From a phage, in assembly GCA_025812035.1 (NCBI GenBank), contig GCA_025812035.1_4719.1: a stretch of 64,000 bases of DNA. One strand, 5' to 3'. Below are positions 13,535 to 57,894 of this stretch, one piece after another; position 1 is the first letter of the stretch; each line of letters starts with the position of its first letter. The translations under genes were made by a program, and so were the position numbers. The notes beneath the pieces are model-generated. The model did not search any database. It was not told where the DNA came from and saw only the letters and a program-made list of their open reading frames with translations.

Positions 13535-15757
13535 TCAGTTAGTCTGAACCGGCAGCTTGATGTTTTCAGTGTAGACCTTACGCAGGTTCACGACGTTAAT
13601 CAGACCCAGCAGCGGGCAGTTGTTAACGAAGCGGCAGCGCGGCTGAACCATGGTTTCTTTAGAAACCTGACCGTTACGGGTAACCTGAGCAACAGATACC
13701 AGTTCCGGTACATACAGGAACATACCGAAGGTCAGCGGATCCGGAGAACCCTGGATACCACGAGACAGGGTCACGAAGATCTTATCACGCAGCAGGACGT
13801 TCGGGTTATCTACAACCACGAAGTTGAAGCTTACACCAACGGTACGGAAATCACCATCGGTCTGCAGGAACTGCGGGATGTAGTTGTCGGTTGCTACTAC
13901 GCAACGCGGTTTCTCATCAGCGTTGGAAGACAGCAGCTGCAGAGCTGGCTGATAACCAGACTCAGAGTACATGCGGTATGCCATCTCACGAATCACGTTC
14001 ATGATCGCAGCGGACACTTCAGCACGACGTTCTGCAGTGGTGGTACCCTGAACGGATTTCGCCAGGTCCAGGTTGATTTCTTCGAACCACGGACGGATCA
14101 GGTAACGACCGAAACCTTCGATCTGGATGTCACCGAACTGACGGAAGCGAGAGGTCGCAACTGCTTTCAGTGCGTCTTTGTAGCTGAACAGTTTCTCAAC
14201 CATCAGGTTGTCGAAACGTGCGTTAGCCGCTTGGATCAGAACGTCCAGGTCAGCAGCGTTTTCTTCCCAATCAAGCGGACGAGGAATGGAGAACGGAGCC
14301 AGCAGACCGATTGCGTAACGCTCTTGCTTCATGTTGAAGTCAAGGTGCTTACCACGTTCACGACGGTTGCTGTTGTTACGACGGATACGCAGTTCGTAAC
14401 CAACCAGTTTGAAGCTCAGGTCGTCAGCCAGGTCTTTGAATTCTTGGCTCTTACGCGGCTGTTCGATGTTGTCCTGATCAACCAGGCGATACAGTTCAGC
14501 GTTAGCGCCGTTAACACGCAGACCCGCTTTCTCTACGTTGGAAGAACCGTAAACTTCGATAGCCAGCTGAGCAGCGGATTTCGCATCGATGATGTCCTGC
14601 AGCGCTTCGGCTTTCGCACCTTTAACGTCAACGGTGTTCTCATCAACGAAGATGGAGTGAGTGTCGAACGCCAGGGTCATTTTGCGGAAGTCGCCTTCCA
14701 GAGATTTCTGGAAACCGTTGGTGATCAGACCGGATACGTCGAACGGAACGTAAGAGGTTTTGCTGTGCTTAGCGGATTTGATTTCCACCAGGATTTTGGT
14801 CAGCGTGATCTGAGCATCCAGCGCGTCGGTGTTGTCGCTGTAACCGTTAGCCAGAATGCTATCGTCTTCAGCGATACCGATCATGTCGATCAGTTTATCA
14901 ACAGCCAGGTAAGACGTTTTATAAGTTACGCCTTTAATTTCGATGTCACGCGGAGCAACGATAGCTTTGTCAACGAAGTACTGCGCGTTAGCATCGTCAG
15001 CACGATAGATCGGGTGCAGGTCGGTCACGTCGTTGGACAGAACGTCGTTGTACATGAACGCGTCCAGCAGCGGACGACGTACCCAATCAGCCGGAGTACC
15101 GTCAGCGTTACGACGCAGATGGTTGAATACCAGCGGACGACGGAAAGATACGTCATAACCGATCTGGTTCGGAGCCAGAACGATGGTGTTGTACAGTTCG
15201 TTACCCATGCGGCTCAGACGAGAAGCCTTCACGTTGAACACAACGGAGTACGGCATCATGTCGCGCAGTTCTTTCTGGTCGTAGGACAGCTGAACCAGTT
15301 CTTCAGATTCGCAACCGCAGGAATCAGCAGCCATCATGACGAAGTTAGAGCTGTCAACTTCACGACCTGACGGAGTGGTGCTGATGTTCATGGAACGTGC
15401 TTGTTTAGCGTATTCCACCGGGTTACCATGAGCCAGCATGATCAGTGCTGCTGCACGAGCCTGCTGTGCGTTCATGGTGAACAGCTGTTCTTCAATACGC
15501 TGCTTCTCTTCCGGAGTGGTGGTTTCGAAGCCCAGCATAGACAGAACCGGTTCTTCTGCTTTACGGATGTCGCTGCTGAAGCTCTTAACATCCATATCGT
15601 TAACCAGTTTGTCCATGGATTTGAAATCAACCTTAGAAGCAGATTCCATAGACAGGAAGGTGTTTTCCAGACCTTTGTCTGCTGGTTTGCTACCATTAGC
15701 GGTCAGGAACTGGCGAGTGGCCGCGACCTGCTGGCTAAGAAGGGTTTTATCATTCAT
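13535..15757 (-). CDS. candidate major capsid protein (740 aa); tail sheath not excluded
   Basis: Strongest codon bias in the window (CGT/CTG/ACC/GGT-rich), implying very high expression; length matches the ~740-750 aa major capsid proteins I recall for phiKZ-like phages; AAAGGA SD; acidic N-terminal region with S-x-E motifs; no homology search run. Confidence 0.5.
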   Translation of the reverse strand: MNDKTLLSQQVAATRQFLTANGSKPADKGLENTFLSMESASKVDFKSMDKLVNDMDVKSFSSDIRKAEEPVLSMLGFETTTPEEKQRIEEQLFTMNAQQARAAALIMLAHGNPVEYAKQARSMNISTTPSGREVDSSNFVMMAADSCGCESEELVQLSYDQKELRDMMPYSVVFNVKASRLSRMGNELYNTIVLAPNQIGYDVSFRRPLVFNHLRRNADGTPADWVRRPLLDAFMYNDVLSNDVTDLHPIYRADDANAQYFVDKAIVAPRDIEIKGVTYKTSYLAVDKLIDMIGIAEDDSILANGYSDNTDALDAQITLTKILVEIKSAKHSKTSYVPFDVSGLITNGFQKSLEGDFRKMTLAFDTHSIFVDENTVDVKGAKAEALQDIIDAKSAAQLAIEVYGSSNVEKAGLRVNGANAELYRLVDQDNIEQPRKSQEFKDLADDLSFKLVGYELRIRRNNSNRRERGKHLDFNMKQERYAIGLLAPFSIPRPLDWEENAADLDVLIQAANARFDNLMVEKLFSYKDALKAVATSRFRQFGDIQIEGFGRYLIRPWFEEINLDLAKSVQGTTTAERRAEVSAAIMNVIREMAYRMYSESGYQPALQLLSSNADEKPRCVVATDNYIPQFLQTDGDFRTVGVSFNFVVVDNPNVLLRDKIFVTLSRGIQGSPDPLTFGMFLYVPELVSVAQVTRNGQVSKETMVQPRCRFVNNCPLLGLINVVNLRKVYTENIKLPVQTN

Positions 15758-15906
15758 TGAAAGTATCCTTTACAGAATTAACTTATATAAGTCGGTCGAT
15801 AGACCATAGCGTACACGCGTGCATGCGCCACTATAGTATCAGTAAACACTTACCGTTGTTTAGGCTGTGATACAACACTAAAAATGCCGCATAACTTTTT
15901 CCTACG

Positions 15907-16527
15907 TCACAAACGACGCAGGCGATAATGGATGGAACGATTGGTGCAATATGAACGGAACAGCGGCAATTGCGCAACTTCCGCAAGACTCATATTAATT
16001 CGCAGGTGTTCAATAACGGCGCTGTAGTTATCAGCAATACGATCGCTCAATAACTCTTCTGCCAATAAAGGAAGACAATCGACAACAATCGCGATCATAT
16101 CCTCATTAACATAACGCACCCGAACACTCAACGGACGTTTGTCTGGGCTGTAAGTTGGATCCGCCAAACGACGTTCAATATCACGCGGATAGCTCGTCAG
16201 TAAATGGTAGTAACCATTATCATAACGATTGATGTACTCACACAGCACATCAACATTCTTTTCTGGCGGCAAACCTGTTTCGTCATAGTGATACGCAAAC
16301 ATACCACCAAGCAGGTTGTTAAGATGAACTGCAGGGTTCGCTTGTTCGTGTTCTTTCGTGATGAAGAAAGGCACGTTCTGAGCTGCGAAATAAAAACCTA
16401 CATCATTGGGCGATAGTATGCCGAAAAGACTTTTAGGATCCAACAGCACCTGTAAGTCATCACGCGCATTTCGAATGATTGCGTGTTCTACCCAATTCGG
16501 AACGACGAGATATCGGAGTTCCTTCAT
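15907..16527 (-). CDS. hypothetical protein (206 aa)
   Basis: ORF track; AGAGGT SD 8 nt upstream of ATG; divergent from the helicase gene. Confidence 0.55.
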   Translation of the reverse strand: MKELRYLVVPNWVEHAIIRNARDDLQVLLDPKSLFGILSPNDVGFYFAAQNVPFFITKEHEQANPAVHLNNLLGGMFAYHYDETGLPPEKNVDVLCEYINRYDNGYYHLLTSYPRDIERRLADPTYSPDKRPLSVRVRYVNEDMIAIVVDCLPLLAEELLSDRIADNYSAVIEHLRINMSLAEVAQLPLFRSYCTNRSIHYRLRRL

Positions 16528-16566
16528 TATGATTACCTCTTTGTAAGTATCGAAAGGATTGAGTCG

Positions 16567-18177
16567 ATGGACCCAAAACAGATAGCCATTAAGATTATTA
16601 CGTTACTGTTTCGTAACGCACAATTGAACCATCCAGATCCCAGTACGATCGACCATGTTAAATCCGTCTTAGATAAAGTCGAACCCCCGAAAAACCATCT
16701 CGCTACGGACATAGATAGAGAGGTTTTCAACAACCTGATGAATACCATTCATTGGATGTTGGAACAACCATTATCGGAACCTTTCGATAAACAACAGTTG
16801 TTACAAAGGATACGTTTGGATTGTCTTGAGCAAAGCAATCTTTACGAGATTCTTGCCGACGGACTGTACGATATCGAAGACGATGCTCATATCAGTAAGG
16901 TCTGTTCGCTTTATTACAACGAATTGCGTAACTTGGTTACCCGTCGTCGTGTTTTCGAAACCTTTAAAAACACATACATGGATATCAGTAATGGGCGTCT
17001 TGGGGATAAAGAATTTTTCGACGCGATGGCGAATTTGAAACTCTCGCTAGACAGTATCGAAATGGATACCGAAAATCCCGAAGAGATGTCGTGTATGATT
17101 GACGGTTTTATCGCCGACAGTGAAGACGATATCGAGAAAGTCGAACGTATGTTCATCAAAGCGATGGAACGTAACAGTCCTGAAGGTGGATTTGTAACCG
17201 GCTGGCAAGGTTTTAATAAAATGCTAGGGTCGGTCGGTGTTTTACGTCGCGGTACCTTAGGACTGATTGGTGCGATGCAGCACAGGAACAAGTCGGGCGT
17301 GCTGTTAAAACTGTTCACACATCTGGCGTTGTACAATAAACCTCATTTCTTTTTTCCGGAGCGAGCAAAGAAAGCATTACTGATTCATTTGTCAACAGAA
17401 AACGAAGTAGAAGAAAACACGCTTCAGATATACAAAAACATGCGAGAACAGGAAACAGGCGAATATGTCGATATTCGTAAGATTGACCCTCGCGAGGCAT
17501 CACGTTATGTGTTGAAGGTTTTCAATGACGCGGGTTTCTCTGTGTGTATGCGTCGTGTTGATGGGATGAGCTATAAACAACTTGCGAACCTCATCGACCA
17601 TTTTGAACGCATGGGCTATGAAGTCATGGCGTTGTTCATCGACTATCTGAAAATGTTCTCATCGGAAGGGCTGGATAGAAACGGACCAACCGGCGCATGG
17701 CTACAAGAACTCTTCAACAAAGTCCGTAACCTCTGCAGCGTTAAACGTATTTTAGGTATGACCGTACACCAGCTATCATCCGACGCGAAGATGCGTGCGC
17801 GTGACGGTAACGATGAAGAGTTTGTTGACCAGGTCGCAGGCTTAAGTTACTGGGATGGCTGTAAAGGGATTGACCGTGAGATCGATCTTGAAGTGATTGT
17901 TGATATCGTTAAGGAACCGGGTAAACGTCAAAGCTGGCAAGTCTTTGCATTAGGGAAAGACCGTCAACCGGATAACGGTTCAACGAAACCTGAGGATAAA
18001 CATTTCACGATGCCGTTCCAAACCATCGGGATGCTTCCTGATGATTACGGTAAGAAAGCAGTATACTGCCGCAAGGTTGGCGGACAACCTGTCTCTGAGG
18101 GAGGCAAAGGTCCGTGGAACAAGTTCGATGAAAACGCAGCGCCGAGCAATGAATTACAATTTGATTTAGAATTTTAA
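16567..18177 (+). CDS. DnaB-like (SF4) replicative DNA helicase
   Basis: ORF track 16483..18177; start moved to ATG 16567 (AAGGA SD) to avoid overlap with the divergent gene. In DnaB order and spacing: GFVTGWQGFNKMLGSVGVLRRGTLGLIGAMQHRNKSG (H1/Walker A region), ALFIDYLKMF (Walker B, cf. DnaB VDYLQLM), MTVHQLSSDAKMRAR (H3, cf. SQLNR..E.R). Confidence 0.6.
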   Translation: MDPKQIAIKIITLLFRNAQLNHPDPSTIDHVKSVLDKVEPPKNHLATDIDREVFNNLMNTIHWMLEQPLSEPFDKQQLLQRIRLDCLEQSNLYEILADGLYDIEDDAHISKVCSLYYNELRNLVTRRRVFETFKNTYMDISNGRLGDKEFFDAMANLKLSLDSIEMDTENPEEMSCMIDGFIADSEDDIEKVERMFIKAMERNSPEGGFVTGWQGFNKMLGSVGVLRRGTLGLIGAMQHRNKSGVLLKLFTHLALYNKPHFFFPERAKKALLIHLSTENEVEENTLQIYKNMREQETGEYVDIRKIDPREASRYVLKVFNDAGFSVCMRRVDGMSYKQLANLIDHFERMGYEVMALFIDYLKMFSSEGLDRNGPTGAWLQELFNKVRNLCSVKRILGMTVHQLSSDAKMRARDGNDEEFVDQVAGLSYWDGCKGIDREIDLEVIVDIVKEPGKRQSWQVFALGKDRQPDNGSTKPEDKHFTMPFQTIGMLPDDYGKKAVYCRKVGGQPVSEGGKGPWNKFDENAAPSNELQFDLEF

Positions 18178-18202
18178 ACGCAAAAAAAAAGAATGTACGG
18201 TT

Positions 18203-18234
18203 CCCTCCTCCAACCCGTAAGGGAAGGAGGAGGG
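18203..18234. terminator. bidirectional intrinsic terminator
   Basis: CCCTCCTCC-AA-CCC-GTAA-GGG-AA-GGAGGAGGG hairpin (GNRA-type loop); A9 tract on plus = U9 after the hairpin on minus; between convergent genes. Confidence 0.7.
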
Positions 18235-18249
18235 TTATGACCGTGTTGG

Positions 18250-18576
18250 CTAACTTATCGTCATGAATTCACTCGGTGAGAATTTCCAACCATTCTCATT
18301 GAGAAGTGTGTTGAGTTTCGCTGCAACGATAAGCCATGCATGCATAGCCGTTACGTCGTATTGGCGATTTACCCGACGTTGGTTTTCGATATTGATTTGC
18401 TCCTGTTCAGTGATGTTTGGATAAAGTGCGATAGCGCTGGGCTTACCCAAAGCGCTAGTCATCACCGCGGTACATTCACTGATAATGTTGTTTAAGTGGT
18501 AGTTGTACACCGTTCCACGCATGACACGATGACGGCATTCGATAATAGCGTCGTAAATGATTTCTCGAGTAATCAT
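18250..18576 (-). CDS. hypothetical small protein (108 aa)
   Basis: ORF track; follows a bidirectional terminator; weak SD. Confidence 0.5.
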   Translation of the reverse strand: MITREIIYDAIIECRHRVMRGTVYNYHLNNIISECTAVMTSALGKPSAIALYPNITEQEQINIENQRRVNRQYDVTAMHAWLIVAAKLNTLLNENGWKFSPSEFMTIS

Positions 18577-18582
18577 GATAAC

Positions 18583-18984
18583 TTAAAACATGCGGTCGTT
18601 TTTAGCACGGGCGTCCATTACGAGATCGTAGATACCTGCGGTTCGTAAACATTCTTCGTAATAACGATGTGTGCCTTCCTCAGCCATCCACGATAATCCT
18701 CGGTTATCCGCAACAATAACCAGTTTGTTATTGTTGAACGCGCACACCACACGGTAGGTCGCGTTGTTATTCGGATCGCGAGTGATAAGCTCGTAGACGC
18801 CATTGACAGGTTTACTGAATTCACCGTTTAACGGGACAAGTTCAGTAGTACCTTCAGCGAACGTCGCGTTGATTGGTGATGGATCTTTAGCGATAACTGT
18901 ATATTCCACGTTATGTTCTTTACTGGTCATAATGCCGAAGTAAGAACTAATAGGGGAACGTGGTACACTAAGAATATTAAACAT
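18583..18984 (-). CDS. hypothetical small protein (~133 aa)
   Basis: ORF track 18583..19086; internal ATG at 18982-18984 has AAGAGGA SD. Confidence 0.5.
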   Translation of the reverse strand: MFNILSVPRSPISSYFGIMTSKEHNVEYTVIAKDPSPINATFAEGTTELVPLNGEFSKPVNGVYELITRDPNNNATYRVVCAFNNNKLVIVADNRGLSWMAEEGTHRYYEECLRTAGIYDLVMDARAKNDRMF

Positions 18985-19039
18985 GAATGTTGTCCTCTTA
19001 TTTGGATTTAGATTGTTGGGTTTGTCATTGAGAAATGAA

Positions 19040-19609
19040 TTAGACGATGAGCGCCCAGGTAGTAAGCACACCGCTTGCGAATTCAAGCTTAAGACGTTTG
19101 CCGATAAGTTGTTGTTGGATCATCTTCTCAGTGGTACGACGATCTTGCTGAACAGCTTTATCGAACGCTTCTTTCGCTTCGGCCTGGTAGAAGTTCGTTT
19201 CTTCGTTTTCATCGATCTCCTCGAGCGTACCCTCGTCGATGTCGGCAAGTTTTACTCGACCGTTCTCATCGGGTTGTTCTGCAGGTTCATTGTCATAAGG
19301 CGTGTCTTTTGTTGGTGCGACACGATGCTGCAACTCGACCTGTGTTAACATGATCTCCATCTCACCATCGATAGGAATGATTTCGTCGGCGCAGCCGTTT
19401 TCGGTCAGCTCTCGACTTTCCAGTAACGTCGTGGTAACAGAGAACACCTCTTCAACAGGAACCTCATCATCGTCGATGGTGTTAACCGTATTGCTGGTAA
19501 CTTCGGCAACAACCATCAAATCGAACGCGTGAGGATCGCCTGGCATTTTGATTCCTGGAAGTTTGTTGAGATACCAAGGATCAAGAATCATGATTTCTGG
19601 ATTGAACAT
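19040..19609 (-). CDS. hypothetical acidic protein (189 aa)
   Basis: ORF track; GAAAGG SD; highly acidic (DDDEVPVEE..., EEIDENEE). Confidence 0.55.
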   Translation of the reverse strand: MFNPEIMILDPWYLNKLPGIKMPGDPHAFDLMVVAEVTSNTVNTIDDDEVPVEEVFSVTTTLLESRELTENGCADEIIPIDGEMEIMLTQVELQHRVAPTKDTPYDNEPAEQPDENGRVKLADIDEGTLEEIDENEETNFYQAEAKEAFDKAVQQDRRTTEKMIQQQLIGKRLKLEFASGVLTTWALIV

Positions 19610-19683
19610 CGTTTTACCTTTCTATGTTAGGTGGGTTGCGGATAGAAGAATCAATGCATAGACTGATTTAAGTTTGTTAAGGT

Positions 19684-20586
19684 TTACTTAGTCTTCGAGT
19701 TACAAGGACTGACCTGTTGTTGTACTCGTTGAATTGTGTCGTAGTACGGGTTAGATTGGTTGAACATGTTGTTGTGTGGATGATAGCCGTATGGCGCATT
19801 TTGCCTTGTTGATGAGAAACCTTGTTGAGAAGGACGATTTGAATTAACCGCGAGTACGTAGTAAACCAAATTTTGACGGTCGAACGTTCCTTCGTTTTTG
19901 AAGGTGTCGGCGTAGGTGCTTATCGCTGGAGCGAGTCTATCACCATCGGCGGTAATAATTGTACCGTCTGGGTAAACTTCACGAACGACGCACCATGTTC
20001 CGATAAGAACGTCTTTGGGTGGCGTATTGCCGTATCCGGTTGTAACGGTAAGGTAAGTATCGAACCCTTCAGAACAACAAGGATGACGATAGATAGGTCC
20101 TGTCATTTCCGTTCTATCGGTATCATCGCATTTCTCTATTGAGAGCGATGATGTGTCGGTTTTGAAATTGTCAAATTCTTTCTTTAAGTCGATTACAGGT
20201 TCTTTCGTATAGTACTTCTTGATTGCTTTGACGTAAAGATCAGGAACGGTTGTCAGCATTCCGTTATACCTGATTCTCAGGTTTTCGAGTAATCCAAAGA
20301 TACTCGCGCATGCTTGTTCGCGAGGTTTTGTAAGATAAGAGATCCCCCCAGGAACGCTGGGATCTTTGAGAAAGAAGATTGCGTTATTGTCGTTGTGTGG
20401 TGCATTGAAGAAAACGATTGATTCGATATATACGGAGCATAGGCTGTCGTTGGCGTCGTCAGATAACACCCAGATGCACTCATCGGTCGTCTTGTTTAAA
20501 AGTTCTGTTTTGTCCACCAAACGTTGTTTCATTGCGAGGAAATGTGCCTGTTGTTCAGCGGATAATTCACGATAAATAGTGGTCAT
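19684..20586 (-). CDS. hypothetical protein, paralog A of a tandem pair (~300 aa)
   Basis: ORF track 19684..20664; ATG 20584-20586 with AAGGAG SD; shares IYRHPCCSEGFDTYLTVTTGY...REVYPDGTI core with the next gene. Confidence 0.6.
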   Translation of the reverse strand: MTTIYRELSAEQQAHFLAMKQRLVDKTELLNKTTDECIWVLSDDANDSLCSVYIESIVFFNAPHNDNNAIFFLKDPSVPGGISYLTKPREQACASIFGLLENLRIRYNGMLTTVPDLYVKAIKKYYTKEPVIDLKKEFDNFKTDTSSLSIEKCDDTDRTEMTGPIYRHPCCSEGFDTYLTVTTGYGNTPPKDVLIGTWCVVREVYPDGTIITADGDRLAPAISTYADTFKNEGTFDRQNLVYYVLAVNSNRPSQQGFSSTRQNAPYGYHPHNNMFNQSNPYYDTIQRVQQQVSPCNSKTK

Positions 20587-20671
20587 ACTCGGCTCCTTGA
20601 TTACGATAAGGATGATTGCGGTTTTGTGATGCTGGTAGGGCCCTAAACAAAGGAGCCCTACCAATATTGGG

Positions 20672-21451
20672 TTACTCAGGATCGGCGTAGAAATGATGGG
20701 GATAGCCGGAGTACGATCCCGCGTTACCGGCTATGGATTTTTTCTGGGAATCGACGACGAGCGCATAGAACTGTCGGGAATTTGTTAGCGTTGAGAAATA
20801 AGAGGAAAGGACTTTTTCATTCAACGCATCGCAAGGTAGACAGGTGCGACCGCAAAACGTCACAATACGACCGTCAGGATAGATCTCACGAATCATTCTC
20901 CATTCGCCGATATCAACCGGCGATGGCGCTGCTACAGCACCCGTTATTGTTAAGTAACGATCGTACGTGGTGTGGCATTCTGGATGAATGTAGATCGGTT
21001 GGGTATCAGTGCTTTCGTTTTCTACCTGATCTTTGCTTACGTATACCTCAAGATAAATCGTTGGTAGTCCGGTTAGAACGCCGGTATCGCGACGTTTTTT
21101 GGTAATCCGGGGACGGATATTATCGAGCACACCTTCCAGTTTTTCTGCGATTTCGTCAGCCGGTAATATATACCCGTATGTTGGTTCTAGATCATCATCG
21201 TGACTGAATAAGATACGACAGTCGTTGTTATTTTCTGGTGCTTCAGGCGGAAAGATGATGGCTTGAACCGTATGACGTTCTGCGATATAAAATCCTTCAG
21301 GTCCCTCAGTTTTGGTAAGTGTAAAGGACCAGGATGAATGATCTTCAAGTGATGTGCCTTCCAGGAAAAAGTTCGTCCGGATTGGTGCGTCCCATTTTGT
21401 GATCATATTGGCGTGACCGATAGCGCCTAACTTTTGATAAATATCTGTCAT
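20672..21451 (-). CDS. hypothetical protein, paralog B of a tandem pair (~260 aa)
   Basis: ORF track 20672..21547; ATG 21449-21451 with GAGGA SD; core IYIHPECHTTYDRYLTITG...REIYPDGRI matches the upstream gene. Confidence 0.6.
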   Translation of the reverse strand: MTDIYQKLGAIGHANMITKWDAPIRTNFFLEGTSLEDHSSWSFTLTKTEGPEGFYIAERHTVQAIIFPPEAPENNNDCRILFSHDDDLEPTYGYILPADEIAEKLEGVLDNIRPRITKKRRDTGVLTGLPTIYLEVYVSKDQVENESTDTQPIYIHPECHTTYDRYLTITGAVAAPSPVDIGEWRMIREIYPDGRIVTFCGRTCLPCDALNEKVLSSYFSTLTNSRQFYALVVDSQKKSIAGNAGSYSGYPHHFYADPE

Positions 21452-21506
21452 GATTGTATCCTCGGTTGTTAAGAGAAATTTACAGCGATAACAGTAACCG
21501 TTGTTA

Positions 21507-21565
21507 TCACCTAGGTAATATAGTCGTGAAATAAACTGGATTAACAAGAATAAGACAGCATAGAA
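21507..21565 (-). promoter_or_regulatory. conserved intergenic element, copy 2 (candidate promoter)
   Basis: ~85% identical over ~59 nt to the copy at 59630-59690 (plus strand TCACCTAGGTAATATAGTCGTGAAATAAACTGGATTAACAAGAATAAGACAGCATAGAA); on minus reads …TTGTTAATCCAGTTTATTTCACGACTATATTACCTAGGTGA, upstream of the gene starting at 21451. Confidence 0.4.
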
Positions 21566-43844: not shown

Positions 43845-46800
43845 TTATCTTACGTTAGTACTATTCTGCTGTTCGCTGAACCAACCATAAACCTTGAGAT
43901 CGGTACCGTATTTCAGTGCGATATACGCATTCAGTGCTGCACAGAACAAAGACGCGAATGCCCATACCAGCGAAGGATCGACATCTTCCGTTACCGCCAC
44001 CAGGGTAGCCTCTGGTTCCCATGACGGAGAACTGTCTGTAAACGTCGTGAACCATGCCCGACGTTGTTCTTCAGTGGTAAAGTCGCTATGTGGCTCCAAC
44101 GCTTCTTTTGCCAAACGTCGATATTCGGTCATATGAATCGCGAGAGCCGCTGAGCTATCATATTTGCATTCATAGTTCGGATCAACAGCACAACAGAGTT
44201 CTGCGGAATCCAACAAAGCAAGCGCTTGTTTGATGCTGTCGGTGGTGCCTGCACTATAAAGCTCGATAGACTGCGAAAGCTTTTCACAGAACGCATTTAA
44301 CGCGGCAGGATCGGATACCTGAAGGTCAAGACCTAATGTCCACGGATAGTTACTGAACACACCCGTAAACTGCGGCATAACACCCAACAGATGTTGTCCG
44401 ATTACAGCGCGGTTATAAGTAGCCCGATTATAGACTTGAAACGCGGCCTCCAATGCTTGGTTATAATGACGACGAAGTTCGTCACGCGTGTTGCGGAATC
44501 TGTTCGCCGCGAGACTCGTAGCTGCGACGCTACAAACATCGTAACCAGTGGACGAGAGCACAACGTCGTTAAGATCGAACGCTTCCTGTTTCAACGATCC
44601 ATTAACAGCTACCGCTTCGCTGTTCGCTTTATCGACAACCGTACTCAACGCGTTGATATAACGTTTAGCGCGGACTTCCAACCATTGTGCAATACCGAGA
44701 ATATCTACCGCGGCTTTAGCAAGATCGCGTGCGTTCACGATTTCGTTCTTCAAGGCACCCAACCCTTTATTCTCAGGCGAAGAGGCTTGTTGACGAATCA
44801 TGCTGTTTAACATGGTAAGCAGATTATCCAACTCATGTCCGCTGACCTTGTTACGCGCATCGGTAATCGGCCCTTGCAGGAATTTACGGCAACCATCGTT
44901 GTATCGAATCAGTTTATCCACATCGATCGACTCGTTAGCGGATTCCTTGAACTGATTCTTCAATTCTTCACGGTAATCATGAATTTCACTTGCAAGATTG
45001 TCGACAGTGATACCATCATGTTCGAGAAGAACTTTATTGAAGTTACCTTTCTCGAATGCAAGAGCAAGACCTTCGCGAATCTTAGCGAGTTTATCCTGAT
45101 CGAGTTCACGACCGTTTGATAACTCTTTCACTTCCGAGCTGATTAATGCTGCAACGTTACCCAGATTGTCGGTAACCCCTTTGAATGTCCCCGACCAAAT
45201 CGTTCCCGCTTCAGCATATTTCGCAATGGTCTGAATACCGACGGTATGCAATGACGCTAAACGTTTCTTCGTGCCTTCGGTAAGCAGTGCGTCTTTAGCT
45301 CGCGTAAGCTGGCTGTTATTAGCTTCCGCTTGCTGAATCGCTGCTTTCGCATTTCCATTACGCCAGCTCTTAACCAACCAATCAACCAGACGTTTTAGGA
45401 TGTTGACGGTATATTCCATCGTCCGCCGTAACGTCTCCCACGCGCTTTCAGCGGTATAAATGCCGTACCCTTCCATCGTCAACGCTTTCAAGCTTGTTTG
45501 ACGTGCCAGCCATTCTACCGTTGCAGAGCAAACGTTTACTAATGCTTCCAGGTAGTTGTAATAGACGTCTGTTGCCGACGTTTCGTTGAACTTTGAATGC
45601 AGATAGAACTGATCGTAAAGTTCGTCGTCATCACCGAAGGCATCATAGTTCCACAGTTCTGTATCACAACCTGTGCCGCAGAAGACGTCAGCTGTCGTAA
45701 ACTCTTTAAGCGCTTTAGCGGCGTCATTTGTCAGGAATTTACCTGTTTCAACTACATCGTCGACATTAAGTTTGGGGAGTTCGTCGGTGACCGGCTCTTC
45801 CAACATCAGCATATTGAAGAATGTGCTATACTTGTATCCGAGCCATTTTGGATAGCTGCTTTCAGGGATCGTAGACAGCGGCTTGATTTTCTTGGCTTCA
45901 GCCAACGTGTCTTTTGCGACCTGATATTGGTTTTCCCCAGCCTTGACGCGACGTAATGCTTTTTCTTCCAACTGCTTGAGTTTGGTATGTCGTGCTTGTG
46001 CTGGAGCTTCAACAAGTTTTTGTACGGACCGCATTGCTGATATCGCTTCTTTTAATACGATCATCGGCATACGAACTTTACCGTCGTCGAAACTAAGAGC
46101 GCGAGCGACACGTTTACTTACGACAGGCTTATCATGGATATTTCGTTCCACCCACGATTTGTTTGCGTAAGTTTGAGCGATCTGCTGTTGGATATTTTCA
46201 AGGTATTTCCAGCCGTTGGAAGCTTTGTTATCCAGAAGCGGATTCGGTCCCTTCTTATCGAAAAGTTTCAGAATCGGACCAAAGAAACCTTCCTGTACGA
46301 GTTCGATACGCGTGTATCCGTCAGCCGCTTCGATTTCTTCTTGGGTTTTGTCCCAGAGCTGTTCACTACGGACAGCAGTAGCTGTTTCAGATACCGACAT
46401 AACAAGCTCGGCAACAACTTCAGCGCAGGTCAGTACGGTACGCACGCATTGCAGTAGCATACGCTGGTAAACGATACGTGCGTTTTGTAGACGTGCGATA
46501 ACCGCTAAATAACCGATATTGTCAAGACGTTCGTCGGCTTGAGCAGAGTCAACACGTTCTATCAGTTGTTTCACCAACGCGGCTGTTTCCGGATAATCGT
46601 TCACGACGTCACGCATAATTCGTGATGCGAAAACCGCGGTACCTAAAACGTTAAGAAGTGTTTTACCGTCCCATTCTTTTGGTGTCGCTACCGATTCGGT
46701 AGGGATGAGATTTCCCGCTTGGTCGAAGTACGGCATAAGGACATTGATATCCGTAGACGGTACTGCGGTGACTGCGTTGTACTCTTCATCCGCACCATCG

Positions 46801-47450
46801 TCGCCGGATGGTTGTATAGCGAGTGCCTGTTCAAGGATTTTGCGGTCAACAGCATAAAGCGCTGATAGGGCCTGTGTTACCGCAACCAGATCAACAACCG
46901 GTGACCAGAGCTGTGCGAGTTTATCCTTGTATTTCTGTACAGCAATAACGAGGTCTTCTTTTACGTCAGGATGATTGATTAAACCACCCAACGCTTCATG
47001 GACTGCAGAAAAACGTTCAGAATGCGCTTGAGTTAATGCGACAAAATCGTCAACGTACGATGCATTTTCTTCAAGGCGTGCAAGTTCCTGCTCCAGGAGA
47101 TCTTTTACTTGCGTGGCGGATGCGTTTCTCAACTGTTCCCCGATAATCGCGATGGCTTTATCGACAACACGACAAGCTTCATTGAACCCGGTCGTTGATG
47201 GTAACTCGGTCCATAATGCCAGCGGCTTACCTTCCATTGCGTCAGGAAGGGAGTACGACAGCATTGTTAGTTGCTGACGCGATACCTGTTTATCACGATG
47301 TAGCGTTTCTTTCAACGCCAGAAGCTCATCAAGACCCACACTGCTGGGGATCGTGGGATGTGATACAGCGTTGATGTTTTCTGCTAATGACTCAAGAACC
47401 AATAAACCATTTTCAGCGGTAGAGAAACCTGCTTTAAGGTATTTGTTCAT
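43845..47450 (-). CDS. hypothetical very large protein (1201 aa), probably virion-associated
   Basis: ORF track; GGAG SD; start immediately follows a 12-bp-stem hairpin. Confidence 0.6.
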   Translation of the reverse strand: MNKYLKAGFSTAENGLLVLESLAENINAVSHPTIPSSVGLDELLALKETLHRDKQVSRQQLTMLSYSLPDAMEGKPLALWTELPSTTGFNEACRVVDKAIAIIGEQLRNASATQVKDLLEQELARLEENASYVDDFVALTQAHSERFSAVHEALGGLINHPDVKEDLVIAVQKYKDKLAQLWSPVVDLVAVTQALSALYAVDRKILEQALAIQPSGDDGADEEYNAVTAVPSTDINVLMPYFDQAGNLIPTESVATPKEWDGKTLLNVLGTAVFASRIMRDVVNDYPETAALVKQLIERVDSAQADERLDNIGYLAVIARLQNARIVYQRMLLQCVRTVLTCAEVVAELVMSVSETATAVRSEQLWDKTQEEIEAADGYTRIELVQEGFFGPILKLFDKKGPNPLLDNKASNGWKYLENIQQQIAQTYANKSWVERNIHDKPVVSKRVARALSFDDGKVRMPMIVLKEAISAMRSVQKLVEAPAQARHTKLKQLEEKALRRVKAGENQYQVAKDTLAEAKKIKPLSTIPESSYPKWLGYKYSTFFNMLMLEEPVTDELPKLNVDDVVETGKFLTNDAAKALKEFTTADVFCGTGCDTELWNYDAFGDDDELYDQFYLHSKFNETSATDVYYNYLEALVNVCSATVEWLARQTSLKALTMEGYGIYTAESAWETLRRTMEYTVNILKRLVDWLVKSWRNGNAKAAIQQAEANNSQLTRAKDALLTEGTKKRLASLHTVGIQTIAKYAEAGTIWSGTFKGVTDNLGNVAALISSEVKELSNGRELDQDKLAKIREGLALAFEKGNFNKVLLEHDGITVDNLASEIHDYREELKNQFKESANESIDVDKLIRYNDGCRKFLQGPITDARNKVSGHELDNLLTMLNSMIRQQASSPENKGLGALKNEIVNARDLAKAAVDILGIAQWLEVRAKRYINALSTVVDKANSEAVAVNGSLKQEAFDLNDVVLSSTGYDVCSVAATSLAANRFRNTRDELRRHYNQALEAAFQVYNRATYNRAVIGQHLLGVMPQFTGVFSNYPWTLGLDLQVSDPAALNAFCEKLSQSIELYSAGTTDSIKQALALLDSAELCCAVDPNYECKYDSSAALAIHMTEYRRLAKEALEPHSDFTTEEQRRAWFTTFTDSSPSWEPEATLVAVTEDVDPSLVWAFASLFCAALNAYIALKYGTDLKVYGWFSEQQNSTNVR

Positions 47451-47465
47451 AAAACACTCCGTTGA

Positions 47466-47496
47466 CCTAGGTGGAGGTTATTGGCCTCCACCTAGG
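47466..47496 (-). terminator. hairpin with perfect 12-bp stem, immediately upstream of the 1201-aa gene
   Basis: CCTAGGTGGAGG-TTATTGG-CCTCCACCTAGG; on minus followed by CAACGGAGTGTTTTATG (SD and start of next gene). Confidence 0.5.
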
Positions 47497-47531
47497 GTTG
47501 AACAACACGTACGGTTATACGGTACGCACGA

Positions 47532-50336
47532 TTACGCTAATTTACCGAAACCGGCTTTCTGTAGTTTCTCGTTGATCAGTTTTGCTTCAGCGAAAACATA
47601 ATCACGATATGCGGTAACTAACCCATCCACCCGTGAACGCAAGGCTTCTTCGAAGCTATACCACGCAGCGATTTCACGAATCTGAGCGTTGATATAATCA
47701 ACGGTTGAGCGAAGCTCGGTTGCATTTTCTTGCGGGATGGCTTTCACCTGGCGAGCAACGTCATTTAAACGACGGAACTGTGTTTCGATTTCTTTAAACT
47801 TACTGTCAGCAAGTTTGCTGAATTCGTCACCGGAACGAGTAAATAACAGATAGCTGTTGCCATCAAGTGCGGTCGCTAACTGCTGAAGTACATTGGTGTC
47901 CGGATACACAGGAGTACCGCTTTGCAGTACTTTCTCACCGAATTCCGCGAAGTCCTTCGGCGGTAAGTGTGCAGACGTTGTCAATTCGTTGAAACGGAAA
48001 GTCAGCGAACTATCATACAACATCCGGTACGCTTCCATACCCTGTTTCATGGTACCAGCCAGGTTAGCCAGACGCGGAGCAATTTCACCCTCTTTAGCGC
48101 GCTTCTGGTCTTCTAACGCCCCTTCCAGTTCTTTACACTGGTCGTTCAGATACACGATACGATCGGGACGCAGACGACGCATCTCACGAAGAATAGTATC
48201 CAGCTTACCTTCCTGGAAATAACCTAGCGTTAAAGACGTACACGCTTGTTGAAGACGATCGAACACTGGTAAGGTTACCATCTCTTTACGGATACCATCA
48301 ACAATCGCAGAAACAGCCGAAAGTTTCTGTTCTGTGGTTAATGGAACGTCAGAGACCGACTTGCTGGGCGCACCAACAACGTTACGCATTGCGTCGGTAT
48401 CCTCGGTTTTATCAACCTCTTTACGAACATTCTCGTCGGGAACATAAACGTTCGCATTACGTTTTGCCTGTTTGATGGCATCGCTGGCCGCTTTTTCGGT
48501 GGCCGCTACGCTATCGGCACGTTTCTTCAAGAGTTCAATAATCCAAAGCAACAGACGACGAATCGCAGTGTAGGCTGTCGTGATGATGACGCCGATAACA
48601 GCCATCTTCATGATACCGAACGATTCCATGGTCGGCTCTAACGCCTGGTCAGGCATATACCGTTCACGCAGCTCCAGATAGATCTGCTCATCCGGTTTGC
48701 TGATCTCACCACGATGCGAAGTCCGATAGATGGCTTCGTCAATCTCAACAAGATCTTTACGTGCTTGACGGTCTGTTTCGGTCAAATAAGCGCAGCCGGA
48801 TACGTCGTCTTCAAAACTTTCGAACTTAAAGAAATCGACAACCATCTTGGCAAGCGCCTCTTTCTTAGCAGGATCGAGCGTCTTCGCATCTTCTTTTTGC
48901 TTATCCATTTTTTCCTTGAATTTCTCTTTGTAGTCATTCAAGGGTTTTACCGCTCTTGCCCTCAACGCGTTATAGATAGTTTTCCAACTTTCTTCGCGTT
49001 CTAAGATAAGGAAGTAGTTTTTGAGTTCGAAAGCACGGTAACGTGCAACGAGCTGTTCTACCTGAGCATGAGCGAGTTGTACATCCATCAACCAGCGGGA
49101 CAATGCTGAAACCAAACGACTATAAGCAAGCAGCGTTTGATATGTCAGCTTCATGTGTTTCTCGTAGAGTTCAATATCTCCGCCCCGGATATCAGCTGTC
49201 GGGTTCATCTCCTTAGTTGCTTTGAAGACTTGTTCAGCTTCATTCAACACTTGCTCGAACTTGACTTCATTGAACGCGTTGAATGGTTCGGCCAGTTCAT
49301 CCATCTGTTCGTGAAGCTCGCGAACCCAAGCTTCTTTGTGATTACGAATGACCGCATCAGCGTGGAGCACGGTTTGATGTTTCTGTACCCATTCTTCGAC
49401 GATATCTGCCGCTGCAACAACACCCATGTTGTCGGAAATCAACGGAATAACATTGGAGAGCATACCAGCACACGCTGGTGTTTTCCAATGATCGTTTAAC
49501 GCGTTACGGAACGCAATAATGTCCGTCATAGACGTAGTGATATCGAGGAACGTGTTACCGTTACGACTCATGCTTGCGATATTTGCAGCAAACGTCTTTT
49601 GCTGATCTACAACGAATGGAATCAATAGCATCAACCATTCAGCAACGCATTTTGCTTTGTCTTTCAGGTTTTTGTCGGCTATTTCTTTGAGATTGATTGC
49701 GCTACCATAACCCGCAAGTTCGTTATATACGTCGTTCAAGGTCATCTGCTTATCCAGCATTTCTCTGAAACGCGGATAATCTTCCCCTAACGCATCGATG
49801 ACATCTTGGATAACATCGTCAGTTGTGGCGATAAATTTCTTCGCGTCGACTTTAGATTTCCAGACGTGTCGTACCGCTTTCTTGATTCCTTCAAAGATAA
49901 ACGCCCAGATACGCTTGATGAGTTCCCAGACTTTCTTCGCACCATCGACAAACAGTTTAGAGACTTTGGCAACGAATCCTTCCTGCACCAACTCAACGCC
50001 GTTACGTGATGGAATTTCGGTGAAGAAAGCATCCGGCAGTTGTTTCGGGAACGCATCACCAAGACGCATACGCAATTCGGGTACATCGGCACGAGAAATA
50101 CCACGCGTCGTTAGCTGCTCGTGAAGACGAACGTTTTCTTCACCAGAGGCTACGAATTCGTTAACGTCAAATGAAACCAGTTCTTGATCTTCGGTGGTAA
50201 CGACGCTTGAACCATCACTGGTTTGGATGTCTTCGTCAGGGAATGCCATGAGCATACCGTGACGCATTTCAACCACCCCGTAATCGGTTGCTAAACCGAA
50301 TTCGTTGTGATCGGGGGTAATAACTGGGATACTCAT
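47532..50336 (-). CDS. large virion-type protein (934 aa) with two copies of the EGF/ESF + amphipathic-helix motif
   Basis: ORF track; motifs VQEGFVAKVSKLFVDGAKKVWELIKRIWAFIFEGIKK and MESFGIMKMAVIGVIITTAYTAIRRLLLWIIELLKK resemble the paralog family. Confidence 0.6.
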   Translation of the reverse strand: MSIPVITPDHNEFGLATDYGVVEMRHGMLMAFPDEDIQTSDGSSVVTTEDQELVSFDVNEFVASGEENVRLHEQLTTRGISRADVPELRMRLGDAFPKQLPDAFFTEIPSRNGVELVQEGFVAKVSKLFVDGAKKVWELIKRIWAFIFEGIKKAVRHVWKSKVDAKKFIATTDDVIQDVIDALGEDYPRFREMLDKQMTLNDVYNELAGYGSAINLKEIADKNLKDKAKCVAEWLMLLIPFVVDQQKTFAANIASMSRNGNTFLDITTSMTDIIAFRNALNDHWKTPACAGMLSNVIPLISDNMGVVAAADIVEEWVQKHQTVLHADAVIRNHKEAWVRELHEQMDELAEPFNAFNEVKFEQVLNEAEQVFKATKEMNPTADIRGGDIELYEKHMKLTYQTLLAYSRLVSALSRWLMDVQLAHAQVEQLVARYRAFELKNYFLILEREESWKTIYNALRARAVKPLNDYKEKFKEKMDKQKEDAKTLDPAKKEALAKMVVDFFKFESFEDDVSGCAYLTETDRQARKDLVEIDEAIYRTSHRGEISKPDEQIYLELRERYMPDQALEPTMESFGIMKMAVIGVIITTAYTAIRRLLLWIIELLKKRADSVAATEKAASDAIKQAKRNANVYVPDENVRKEVDKTEDTDAMRNVVGAPSKSVSDVPLTTEQKLSAVSAIVDGIRKEMVTLPVFDRLQQACTSLTLGYFQEGKLDTILREMRRLRPDRIVYLNDQCKELEGALEDQKRAKEGEIAPRLANLAGTMKQGMEAYRMLYDSSLTFRFNELTTSAHLPPKDFAEFGEKVLQSGTPVYPDTNVLQQLATALDGNSYLLFTRSGDEFSKLADSKFKEIETQFRRLNDVARQVKAIPQENATELRSTVDYINAQIREIAAWYSFEEALRSRVDGLVTAYRDYVFAEAKLINEKLQKAGFGKLA

Positions 50337-52338: not shown

Positions 52339-54090
52339 ATGAGCGAACAAGAACGAAAACCTAAGAAGAAACTGCTCGGTATTCAATGTCGACACATCAG
52401 TTATAACGAAGCGAACGATGGCAGTAAGAACGATCTCATGATTGCAAAAGAGATCATGTTCTTTGATGATAATACGCAGGCAACGAACCTTCGATTCTTC
52501 GAGAATTACAAACGTCCATTTTGGGTGACGGTAGAGAGTAAACGTAAGAACAAATATAAAAAGGAAAGCGAGAAGCTCTCGCATGTACGTCGCTATGATG
52601 TCCGTCAAAGTGAACTGGTCGATAAAATCAGTTCGGTGCTTTATAAAAGACGTGCTGATGATAACACCCGCTTACAACAGCTCGCACGGAGTCCATACCT
52701 CTATGGAACGGACGTTAGCGCTAGCTGTTATTTAAAAACCCAATACAATACAAAATGGCCGGAATACGCCGATAAATTACCTGCCACCATCGCATGTTTC
52801 GATATCGAAACCGACGTTGTTCATGGGCACGGTAAGATCGTTTGTATGTCTATTACAATGGGCTACAATGCGATACTTTGCTATACCAAGGACTTCGTTG
52901 GTCATATTCCGAATGCGATCGAGAAAACCCACGAGAAGATTCGATATTACCTGGCCGAACGTCTGAACACCAAAGAGGATCCTCACGCGTTCGAAAAATA
53001 TCATTACGATGTTCGAATCGTAGAAAGCCCAGCACAAGCGGTCATCCAATGCATGCAGAAGGTTCACGAATGGCAGCCGGATTATCTCCTTGGCTGGAAT
53101 ATCGCGTTCGATATTCCACGTATGCTCCAGGCGCTGAACGAGGAAGGGTATCGTCCCGAGGATGTTTTCTCCGATCCTCGCGTACCCCCTAAGTATCGCA
53201 TTGCTCGCTGGGTACCACCGAAGACCGACAAGGTATCTGCTTCAGGTCGTAAAACCAACCTTACCCTTGAGCAGACCTGGCCGATGTTTTATACGATGGC
53301 TACATACCAGGTTATGGATGCGATGTGTGGTTATAAGTTCGTTCGTTTAGGAAGACCGGATGAAGGACGTTATTCACTCGATGCGGTGTTAGAGCGTAAT
53401 AAATGTCATACGAAACTAAAAGCGATTCCTGGTACAGAAGGGTTCACGGAGCTCGCCTGGCACGAAGAGATGCAAACGAACCATCAAATCGACTACGGCG
53501 TATATAACCTTTGGGATAACCAAGGTATTGAGGCATTGGACCAGAAAACAAAAGACTATTCGATGACCATCCCTATTCGTTTAGCGGCGTCGGATTTGAA
53601 AGATTTCAGTTCCAACCCTAAACGTATCTGTGATAAACTTTTCTTCGTTTATCTTAACCGTGGGGAAGTCATGGGATGCACCGCCGACGACATGACCCAG
53701 GAAGAAGATAAATGGGTTATCTCACGAGCAGGACATATCGTCACATTACCATGCGATCTCATGGCAGACAACGGCATACATCTCTTCTGGGATATGCCGA
53801 ACTTGAGAAGTTATATCCGTCTATTCGTTGCAGACCTTGACATAAGCAGTTCATACCCGAATGGGCAGATCCTGCTCAATCTATCCAGGGCGTGTGTTTT
53901 TCGTGAGCTCTCACGTATTGAGGGCGTCTCTGACTATCAATTCAGGAAGCTAGGTATCAACTTTATTACCGGAGGTAAAACGAACGCGGTAGACTTCTGT
54001 AGAATCGTTTATAAAGCACCATCGATGTTCGAACTCTTAGAACATTTCGATGCGACGCGTCCGAAAGAGGAAGCGCGAACCATCGAATGA
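52339..54090 (+). CDS. family B DNA polymerase, N-terminal part (3'-5' exonuclease domain plus palm motif A); motifs B and C not encoded here
   Basis: ORF track; Exo I ACFDIETD, Exo II LGWNIAFDIPRM, Exo III YGVYNLWD, motif A-like DLDISSSYPNG (cf. DxxSLYPS); ORF ends ~70 aa after motif A with no YGDTDS-type motif; followed by a hairpin and T-rich tract. Confidence 0.6.
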   Translation: MSEQERKPKKKLLGIQCRHISYNEANDGSKNDLMIAKEIMFFDDNTQATNLRFFENYKRPFWVTVESKRKNKYKKESEKLSHVRRYDVRQSELVDKISSVLYKRRADDNTRLQQLARSPYLYGTDVSASCYLKTQYNTKWPEYADKLPATIACFDIETDVVHGHGKIVCMSITMGYNAILCYTKDFVGHIPNAIEKTHEKIRYYLAERLNTKEDPHAFEKYHYDVRIVESPAQAVIQCMQKVHEWQPDYLLGWNIAFDIPRMLQALNEEGYRPEDVFSDPRVPPKYRIARWVPPKTDKVSASGRKTNLTLEQTWPMFYTMATYQVMDAMCGYKFVRLGRPDEGRYSLDAVLERNKCHTKLKAIPGTEGFTELAWHEEMQTNHQIDYGVYNLWDNQGIEALDQKTKDYSMTIPIRLAASDLKDFSSNPKRICDKLFFVYLNRGEVMGCTADDMTQEEDKWVISRAGHIVTLPCDLMADNGIHLFWDMPNLRSYIRLFVADLDISSSYPNGQILLNLSRACVFRELSRIEGVSDYQFRKLGINFITGGKTNAVDFCRIVYKAPSMFELLEHFDATRPKEEARTIE

Positions 54091-54170: not shown

Positions 54171-54188
54171 TGGAGGTTTTATGTGTTT

Positions 54189-54638
54189 TTAATTATTATT
54201 GGTGGGGTTATCGTCCGGTTTATATTCAATGCCGTAGGCGACGTAACGGTCTGTTGTATGGACGACAAGCGAGATAGGGAAATCATAATGCATAGTTTTG
54301 TCTCGAACGAGCTGAGTAAAGAGATCCATATAACGTATTAAGTCTTCACTGGTGTAATCAGAAGGGAAGAAGACATCGATGGTTATTGAATCTTCATAGA
54401 GGCGTACGACCAACTTATCCAGAAGGTCGGCATATTGGTTAGCCGGGGTGACGTCCATCTGACAGATGCCACGATCTCCTTCGTCTCGCGATACCCACAT
54501 CGTGGTATCCTGTAATGAGGTTTCAAGGATCTCGAAAATACATTTTGCTGTAAGTCTTAGTTTATTTGTTACGTCATGGTTAGGTGAATAATGGTCACGG
54601 ATGTTTTTCACTGCGTCTTTGATAGAGAAAGTCATCAT
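54189..54638 (-). CDS. small acidic protein, member 1 of tandem paralog array (149 aa)
   Basis: ORF track; C-terminal signature HYDFPISLVVHTTDRYVAYGIEYKPDDNP shared with neighbours. Confidence 0.6.
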   Translation of the reverse strand: MMTFSIKDAVKNIRDHYSPNHDVTNKLRLTAKCIFEILETSLQDTTMWVSRDEGDRGICQMDVTPANQYADLLDKLVVRLYEDSITIDVFFPSDYTSEDLIRYMDLFTQLVRDKTMHYDFPISLVVHTTDRYVAYGIEYKPDDNPTNNN

Positions 54639-54648
54639 TGATGCTCCT

Positions 54649-56101: not shown

Positions 56102-56138
56102 TTTTTATCCTTAATGTTACCGGTTTAGAAATATTATT

Positions 56139-56903: not shown

Positions 56904-56905
56904 GA

Positions 56906-57825: not shown

Positions 57826-57894
57826 TTTAGCACCTTCGATACCTTTTAACCGACACGTGCCCCACTTAACAAGGGACACGAAGTCGTTGATTAA

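Follow-up and report, generated by a model that had tools for sequence, protein, structure and literature searches.

The locus under study encodes a divergent DnaB-like replicative helicase, and lies within a 64,000-nucleotide stretch of phage DNA (here called the window) that is closely related to Escherichia phage vB_EcoM_Goslar, at about 94-95% nucleotide identity. A megablast search with positions 14000-20000 returned Goslar as the sole match (95.4% identity), and local blastn showed the whole window to be collinear with Goslar 29919-91077, at 85-94% identity and with a few indels. Goslar is a nucleus-forming jumbo phage of the genus Goslarvirus, and its annotation includes a nuclear shell protein and PhuZ. 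The helicase gene corresponds to Goslar gp043 (annotated at 46471..48081, RefSeq name "DnaB-like replicative helicase"), and the two proteins share 98.9% amino acid identity. The features of the locus are collected in Table 1.

Table 1. Position of the helicase gene, its domains and motifs, and neighbouring features in the window.
Feature	Position	Strand	Basis and remarks
phiKZ-type major head protein gene	13535..15757	-	PHROG match
Shine-Dalgarno-like AAGGA	16554..16558	+	8 nt upstream of ATG 16567; direct sequence reading
CDS, divergent DnaB-like replicative helicase	16567..18177	+	536 codons and a stop codon; orthologous to gp043 of Goslar, gp118 of phiKZ and gp315 of RAY
N-terminal helical domain (residues 1-100) and long hairpin (helices 106-141 and 147-167)	16567..17067	+	AF2 model and Foldseek; matches DnaB N-terminal collar domain
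Predicted linker helix (residues 186-202) between N-terminal and RecA-like domains	17122..17172	+	AF2 model
RecA-like NTPase domain (residues 205-516)	17179..18114	+	Pfam, HMM and hhalign to DnaB C-terminal domains; pLDDT mostly 85-95
Modified Walker A / P-loop, G235-A-M-Q-H-R-N241-K242-S243-G244	17269..17298	+	DNA reading and DnaB alignments
H1a motif, S276-T-E278-N-E280, catalytic Glu278	17392..17406	+	Aligns with DnaB 'sLEm'
Walker B, F357-I-D359-Y360-L361	17635..17649	+	Aligns with DnaB 'iDYLQL'
H3 motif, H401-Q402-L-S-S405, gamma-phosphate sensor Gln	17767..17781	+	Aligns with DnaB 'SQLnR'
Lys/Arg-finger motif, G463-K464-D465-R466	17953..17964	+	Aligns with E. coli DnaB 'GKQRNG'
Disordered acidic/aromatic C-terminal tail (residues 517-536), ending NELQFDLEF	18115..18174	+	pLDDT below 50

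The longest form of the open reading frame runs for 564 codons on the + strand, from a GTG at 16483 to the stop at 18177. This upstream start was rejected, as it would make the gene overlap its divergently transcribed neighbour, and the resulting extension is absent from every homolog. The ATG at 16567, on the other hand, coincides with the N-terminus of all homologs (consensus MDxKLL) and is where gp043 is annotated to begin in Goslar, and these correspondences, together with the AAGGA motif upstream, support the shorter coding sequence as correct. The divergent intergenic region, shared with a minus-strand gene at 15907..16527, comprises only 39 bp (16528-16566). Scans for sigma-70 promoters and intrinsic terminators around the helicase gene gave results at or below chance level, and are uninformative because Goslar-like phages have their own RNA polymerases.

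Gene order around the helicase is shared with related phages. Goslar has the major head protein gene, one small gene, and then the divergently transcribed helicase gene, as in the window, and the corresponding order in phiKZ is gp120 (capsid), gp119 and gp118 (helicase). Erwinia phage RAY is probably alike, judging by gene numbering (capsid gp317, helicase gp315). The window gene thus sits in a conserved block beside the major capsid gene of a phiKZ-like, chimallin-encoding jumbo phage. The helicase gene has been counted among the core genes of chimalliviruses, and in RAY its product, gp315, is found inside the phage nucleus (PMC10299810).

Family assignment and predicted fold

Comparison with Pfam gave a single strong match, to PF20307 (divDNAB, "Divergent DnaB-like ATPase"), which spanned residues 151-513 of the protein and positions 3-355 of the 356 in the profile. 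The score was 400.9 bits (E 4.9e-120), where the curated gathering threshold is 26. The name of this Pfam family is the term used by Iyer et al. 2021 (PMC7824862). The Pfam models DnaB_C (PF03796) and DnaB N-terminal (PF00772) did not match the protein even at E<=10; three distant homologs have precomputed matches to PF03796. Among the PHROGs, the protein matched phrog_3213 at E 7e-123 and phrog_19, the group of canonical DnaB, at E 3.6e-11, both named 'DnaB-like replicative helicase'.

A family profile was required to reach DnaB in the PDB, where a single-sequence phmmer search retrieved nothing relevant. When a profile HMM was made from an alignment of 24 sequences (alignment A1), DnaB chains 4nmn, 2vye and 2r6a were matched at E values of about 1e-4, and hhalign paired the family with E. 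coli DnaB at a probability of 87.7% (E 3.5e-6). The hhalign comparison with T7 gp4 was insignificant (E 0.13, probability 0.5%), so that the protein is to be described as DnaB-like and not gp4-like. An AlphaFold2 (AF2) model built from alignment A1, with a mean pLDDT of 81, displayed the two-domain architecture of DnaB, consisting of a helical N-terminal domain with a hairpin, a linker helix, and a RecA-like C-terminal domain. The 50 best listed Foldseek matches of this model in the PDB were all to DnaB, T4 gp41 or SPP1 G40P, over ~500 columns and with a best E value of 6e-15. The helix at residues 186-202, which follows a low-confidence loop (residues 169-180), is probably equivalent to the linker helix of DnaB, as suggested by the full-length extent of the Foldseek matches. 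Some of the homologs are longer (P0147, P0159 and P0084), with insertions after residues 260 or 302, outside the P-loop.

The window protein is, then, a homolog of DnaB-type helicases (SF4, RecA fold) and a member of a divergent, curated family. An earlier note on this DNA, made without database searches, had described it as a DnaB-like helicase with a non-canonical P-loop, while allowing that a profile search might fail to support an SF4 helicase; the matches to PF20307 and to PHROGs 3213 and 19, as well as the Foldseek matches to DnaB, gp41 and G40P, all bear the description out. Domain architecture and fold are shared with the DnaB proteins of E. coli, G. stearothermophilus, A. aeolicus and V. 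cholerae, and with T4 gp41 and SPP1 G40P, but identity in the structural alignments is only 12-15%. T7 gp4 belongs to the same broad class of RecA-fold hexameric replicative helicases (SF4), and resembles the window protein in that the chain ends in an acidic tail with an aromatic residue at its C-terminus, but it carries a canonical GKS, and the window protein has no fused primase. The acidic tail of T7 gp4 contacts the polymerase. Such a tail is also usual within the divDNAB family: in the alignment of 171 members described below, the last 8 residues include an aromatic residue in 161 and an acidic residue in 160.

The P-loop and its variation within the divDNAB family

The codons of the P-loop read GGT GCG ATG CAG CAC AGG AAC AAG TCG GGC, and the seventh of these (AAC, 17287-17289) specifies Asn241 at the position that is occupied in DnaB by the glycine of GK[ST]. 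Profile HMM and hhalign comparisons both aligned A236-M-Q-H-R-N-K-S243 on A-R-P-S-M/V-G-K-T of DnaB. The first 'G' of the GxxxxGK[ST] motif is an alanine (A236) in the window protein, and likewise in bacterial DnaB, from which it follows that Asn241 is the sole departure from DnaB at the motif-defining positions. The replacement of the glycine before Lys-Ser by Asn, on which the earlier note was centred, was thus confirmed by the DNA reading and by two DnaB alignments. The coordinates given there for the gene, 16567..18177, are those of the coding sequence. The string that the note gave for the Walker A motif, GAMQHRNKS, is correct as sequence, but its nine letters include one residue too many, the motif beginning at A236. 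The protein does not conform to the canonical pattern, [AG]-x4-G-K-[ST], at this site, and the proposal that a better alignment might reveal a proper GK[ST] elsewhere found no support, as there is none in the whole protein; K[ST] occurs only twice, at K32-S33 in the N-terminal domain and at K242-S243. The AF2 model places the P-loop between a strand (residues 231-236) and a helix (residues 242-256).

The remaining motifs are those of a DnaB protein. H1, Walker B and H3 had been reported to match DnaB in order and spacing, and this proved accurate in both the profile HMM and the hhalign alignments, in which E278, D359, Q402 and K464/R466 all retained the DnaB arrangement. The likeness extends from the Lys-Ser/Thr of Walker A, through the catalytic Glu, the Walker B DYL and the H3 Gln, to the GKxR finger. 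The P-loop differs in that it lacks the GK[ST] glycine and has a conserved Q-H. By analogy with DnaB hexamers, the Lys464 and Arg466 fingers would be expected to act in trans.

Conservation was assessed across the family as a whole. A profile search of 1.84 billion proteins yielded 1,509 matches at E<=1e-3, the best of which provided 150 representatives, one per 50%-identity cluster. These were aligned to the family HMM, as were the 23 homologs collected first and the protein of the window itself, and the counts given here are over the 171 sequences of that alignment, which are mostly representatives of 50%-identity clusters. The residue before the lysine (241) was Tyr in 69 sequences, Phe in 67, Asn in 17, Trp in 7, Gly in 4, His in 4, and Ser, Cys and Asp in one each, so that Tyr or Phe is found in 136 of 171, with Asn as the third most common residue. 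Lys242, Ser/Thr243, Glu278 and Asp359 were present in every member (171/171), and Tyr360 in 170/171. Gln402 was found in 166 of 167 ungapped sequences, and Lys464 and Arg466 in 165/167 each. Within the loop, Gln238 was conserved in 117 sequences and His239 in 148, while position 465, an Asp in the window protein, was His in 150.

The consensus P-loop of the family is [GSA]-A-L-Q-H-N-[YF]-K-[ST]-G, as exemplified by GGLQHQYKSG in phiKZ gp118, and the GAMQHRNKSG of the window protein fits the family-typical A-[LM]-Q-H-x-[YFWN]-K-[ST]-G, a pattern with no glycine before the lysine. The missing glycine is a trait of the whole divDNAB family and not of the window protein. The conserved Q-H-x-[YF] consensus indicates that the loop has been re-patterned rather than having decayed. 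In Goslar gp043, phiKZ gp118 and RAY gp315 the P-loop is re-patterned in the same way, and the invariant catalytic residues are likewise shared. The Goslar clade departs from what is typical of the family in having Asn and not Tyr/Phe before the lysine, Arg and not Asn at position 240, and Asp and not His at position 465; it also has 7 residues inserted ahead of the linker helix, and its C-terminal tail is longer. In a neighbor-joining tree, which is crude at such divergence and gives approximate counts, Asn241 is spread over about 13 separate lineages and Gly over 4, all of them lying among neighbours with Tyr/Phe. The Asn codon of the window gene, AAC, is one transversion away from the Tyr codon TAC.

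A sequence error had been suggested as one source of the unusual residue, and the broader possibility is that Asn241 reflects a sequencing or assembly error, or that in this particular phage the gene is decaying into a pseudogene. Beyond the departure from the textbook motif nothing points that way, and the likelihood is negligible. Goslar has the identical AAC codon and the same GAMQHRNKSG, the motif recurs in three relatives from the databases, of which one is 98% and the other two are 74% identical, and Asn241 is found in 13 other family representatives. The reading frame is intact and of a length typical for divDNAB, and the differences from Goslar gp043 are overwhelmingly synonymous (76, as against 7 non-synonymous; dN/dS 0.02). 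An error as the source of Asn241 is refuted by these comparisons. As to whether the Asn is conserved in related phages, it is kept in Goslar and the three relatives, but across the family Tyr/Phe is typical and Asn a recurrent minority. The earlier interpretation was, therefore, partly supported: the substitution was seen correctly, while the family-wide nature of the glycine loss was missed.

The divDNAB family and its modified ATP-binding motif were already known, both from PF20307 and from Iyer et al. 2021. In that study the ATP-binding motif of the divergent DnaB is described as modified and its Mg2+ site as intact, and activity is predicted for the protein (PMC7824862). The ATP-binding motif meant by those authors is evidently the one discussed here, though their text says "B" (PMC7824862). 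An explicit spectrum of residues at the glycine position was not found either in that study (PMC7824862) or in a 2026 preprint on the phiKZ polymerase (PMC13648687), and a paper on P-loop hydrolysis patterns contained nothing specific on the residue before the lysine. Since the trait is published and family-wide, and the gene is already annotated in a known type of phage, the finding itself is an ordinary one.

Probable activity of the helicase and possible role of the remodelled loop

The explanation that best fits these data is that of a working replicative helicase whose P-loop has been remodelled throughout the family, and not of a dead paralog or a sequencing error; we consider this likely. 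The gene product would be the phage's own hexameric replicative helicase, a divDNAB protein encoded by a core gene of the nucleus-forming jumbo phages (Chimalliviridae). By homology, it would assemble into a ring like that of DnaB, comprising an N-terminal helical collar, a linker helix and a RecA-like motor. NTP would be bound where the subunits meet, and the protein would move along single-stranded DNA within the phage nucleus, unwinding the fork ahead of the split B-family polymerase. Throughout the family, the P-loop has the form [GSA]-A-L-Q-H-x-[YFWN]-K-[ST]-G in place of A-x4-G-K-[ST], with the glycine before the lysine normally exchanged for Tyr/Phe, and the Asn of the Goslar lineage is separated from Tyr by one nucleotide change (TAC to AAC). 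The phosphate-binding loop would then tolerate, or even exploit, a side chain at 241, leaving the NTPase active. That the P-loop tolerates Asn was one of the options put forward in the earlier note, and it is the one favoured by the family data, in which Asn, Tyr, Phe, Trp and His all occur at 241 and the catalytic residues are kept.

An active NTPase is most likely because the residues of the chemistry, Lys242, Ser243, Glu278, Asp359, Gln402, Lys464 and Arg466, are all retained. A side chain at the glycine preceding the lysine in P-loop NTPases usually weakens nucleotide binding, so full activity cannot be assumed. A search of the literature and the PDB found no enzymology or structure for any divDNAB member, and the 2026 preprint on the phiKZ polymerase refers to a replicative helicase of divergent DnaB type that is still only predicted (PMC13648687).

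The absence of the GK[ST] glycine could also mean that the protein is an ATPase-impaired DnaB paralog, serving as a loader, regulator or scaffold, while unwinding is carried out by a phage SF2 helicase or by imported host DnaB. The setting leaves some room for such a role, as chimalliviruses have no recognisable primase, clamp loader or helicase loader, and functions may have been redistributed; a DnaG-type primase, DnaC, DciA or gp59-type loader is not known from phages of the Goslar/phiKZ type (PMC7824862; PMC13648687), and in phiKZ the primase, clamp and clamp loader are likewise not known (PMC13648687). The supplementary data of an ASO screen, moreover, record neither a plaque nor a ChmA phenotype for two antisense oligomers directed at phiKZ gp118 (PMC12571901). 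Against this, no transposon insertions were recorded in phiKZ gp118 in a genome-wide TnSeq experiment, a result like that for the adjoining major capsid gene, which marks the ortholog as essential (supplement, PMC12676376).

Other lines of evidence also make an impaired paralog, which the earlier note had offered as a loader or regulator-like protein, quite improbable. The other catalytic residues are invariant, or nearly so, in 171 divergent members, which would be unexpected for a dead enzyme, and the low dN/dS value relative to Goslar reflects strong purifying selection. The full-length DnaB architecture of the AF2 model also argues for a working motor. No second SF4/DnaB reading frame was found when the window and the whole Goslar genome were searched with the family HMM, E. 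coli DnaB and T7 gp4, the only hits being gp043 and its ortholog in the window, although single-sequence phmmer misses even gp043, and a very divergent SF4 protein could escape. The only other helicases in the Goslar annotation are of the SF2 type (gp160 and gp164). Finally, Gly has been regained in four members, and there is free interchange at 241 between Phe, Tyr, Trp, Asn and His, which gives the position the appearance of being tolerant rather than decayed.

An active motor may also have put its altered loop to use. The side chain at 241 might reach the neighbouring subunit and touch its residue 465, which is flanked by the Lys464 and Arg466 fingers, a proposal that is possible but rather doubtful. 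The coupling between subunits, the preference for one nucleotide over another or the rate of hydrolysis would be tuned in this way, and in the Goslar lineage a Tyr/Phe-His pair would have been exchanged for an Asn-Asp pair; this too is tentative, and to be held with low confidence. The idea draws on the conserved Q-H-x-[YF] that stands in place of P-S-x-G, as expected of a loop that is re-patterned rather than degraded, and on the residues found together at the two positions. Tyr or Phe at 241 with His at 465 is the majority state (125/171), the swapped combination of H241 with Y465 occurs in one clade (3 sequences), N241 is accompanied by D465 in the Goslar clade (4 sequences), and by R465 in two other Asn lineages. 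Residues other than His are found at 465 in 9 of the 28 sequences without an aromatic residue at 241, compared to about 8 of the 139 with one. This association, however, depends on roughly four independent events, and the statistics ignore phylogeny. Of the 17 sequences with Asn241, 11 keep H465, and the proximity of the two positions in trans is assumed from DnaB geometry. Covariation of 241 and 465 was not retained as a firm claim, since the pattern is suggestive but the independent events are too few.

The wider interest of the helicase lies in its setting, as work to reconstitute the chimallivirus replisome has only recently begun, and its polymerase was described in 2026. With the near-universal glycine of the P-loop exchanged for Tyr, Phe or Asn, and with the catalytic residues kept, the divDNAB family offers a natural and useful way to test the strictness of the GK[ST] rule. 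The table of residues at 241 (Y/F/N/W/G/H) and the possible pairing of 241 with 465 point to mutants that would be worth making, although their value is mainly for specialists. It is also possible, but rather doubtful, that the divDNAB P-loop is a functionally distinct variant of Walker A, in which an aromatic residue or Asn at 241, together with the conserved His located two positions upstream, forms a pair with residue 465 in the Lys/Arg-finger loop on the other side of the subunit interface. If that were true, the helicases of the phage nucleus would sense, couple or select nucleotide in a manner unlike all characterised SF4 helicases, and the Asn241/Asp465 combination of Goslar would be a natural variant of the pair.

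The C-terminal tail of the helicase and variation among its homologs

The helicase ends in a disordered tail rich in acidic and aromatic residues, and these features recur across the family: the last eight residues include an aromatic residue in 161 and an acidic residue in 160 of the 171 aligned members. Examples are ETPFWDF and EVAWWAE, while the phiKZ protein ends in DDWGY. C-terminal interaction tails are found in T7 gp4, T7 gp2.5 and SSB, and the helicase tail resembles these. It could serve as a docking site for the split B-family DNA polymerase of the phage or for another partner.

Some family members carry insertions of 24-108 residues after the equivalents of residue 260 or 302, as noted in the homologs P0147 (634 aa), P0159 (562 aa) and P0084 (531 aa). 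The PhiPA3 helicase gene matched in two separate places, the best match covering 73%, which suggests an interrupted gene, possibly through an intron or other insertion.

The divergent region upstream of the helicase gene

The helicase gene and the gp042-like gene are transcribed divergently and lie just 39 bp apart. Any promoters of the two must overlap in this gap. A scan of this interval for the sigma-70 consensus gave nothing above chance. The gp042-like gene had no Pfam or PHROG match.

Coordinates of features in the window
Feature	Position	Strand	Remark
gp042-like gene	15907..16527		206 aa; divergent from helicase gene
Intergenic region	16528-16566		39 bp
Helicase tail	18115-18174		residues 517-536 (...NELQFDLEF)
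ORF	19684..20664	minus	326 aa; in stretch extra to Goslar
ORF	20672..21547	minus	291 aa; tandem with preceding ORF
Unmatched segment	45481-47151		within gp064 ortholog
Unmatched segments	54180-55139, 55733-56915, 57366-57916		among small genes gp070-gp073

Gene content relative to Goslar

Approximately 1.8 kb at 19668-21446 corresponds to only 82 bp in Goslar (49575-49656). The two tandem ORFs here, just downstream of the helicase block, are paralogs (27% identity, E 2e-22). Neither matches a Pfam family; near the C-terminus both have the conserved region IY.HP.C...YLT.T...W...RE.YPDG.I. They look like a lineage-specific accessory gene duplication.

The four unmatched segments, one of them in the ortholog of a large gene, had no blastn match to Goslar in a region otherwise collinear with it at 85-94% identity, and are hypervariable accessory regions. 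In Goslar, the gene for the DNA polymerase N-subunit, gp068, is directly followed by a NUMOD1/HNH homing-endonuclease gene, gp069. The window lacks gp069 (~1.8 kb missing at 53834-53854, relative to Goslar 81186-82966), a presence/absence pattern typical of a mobile endonuclease.
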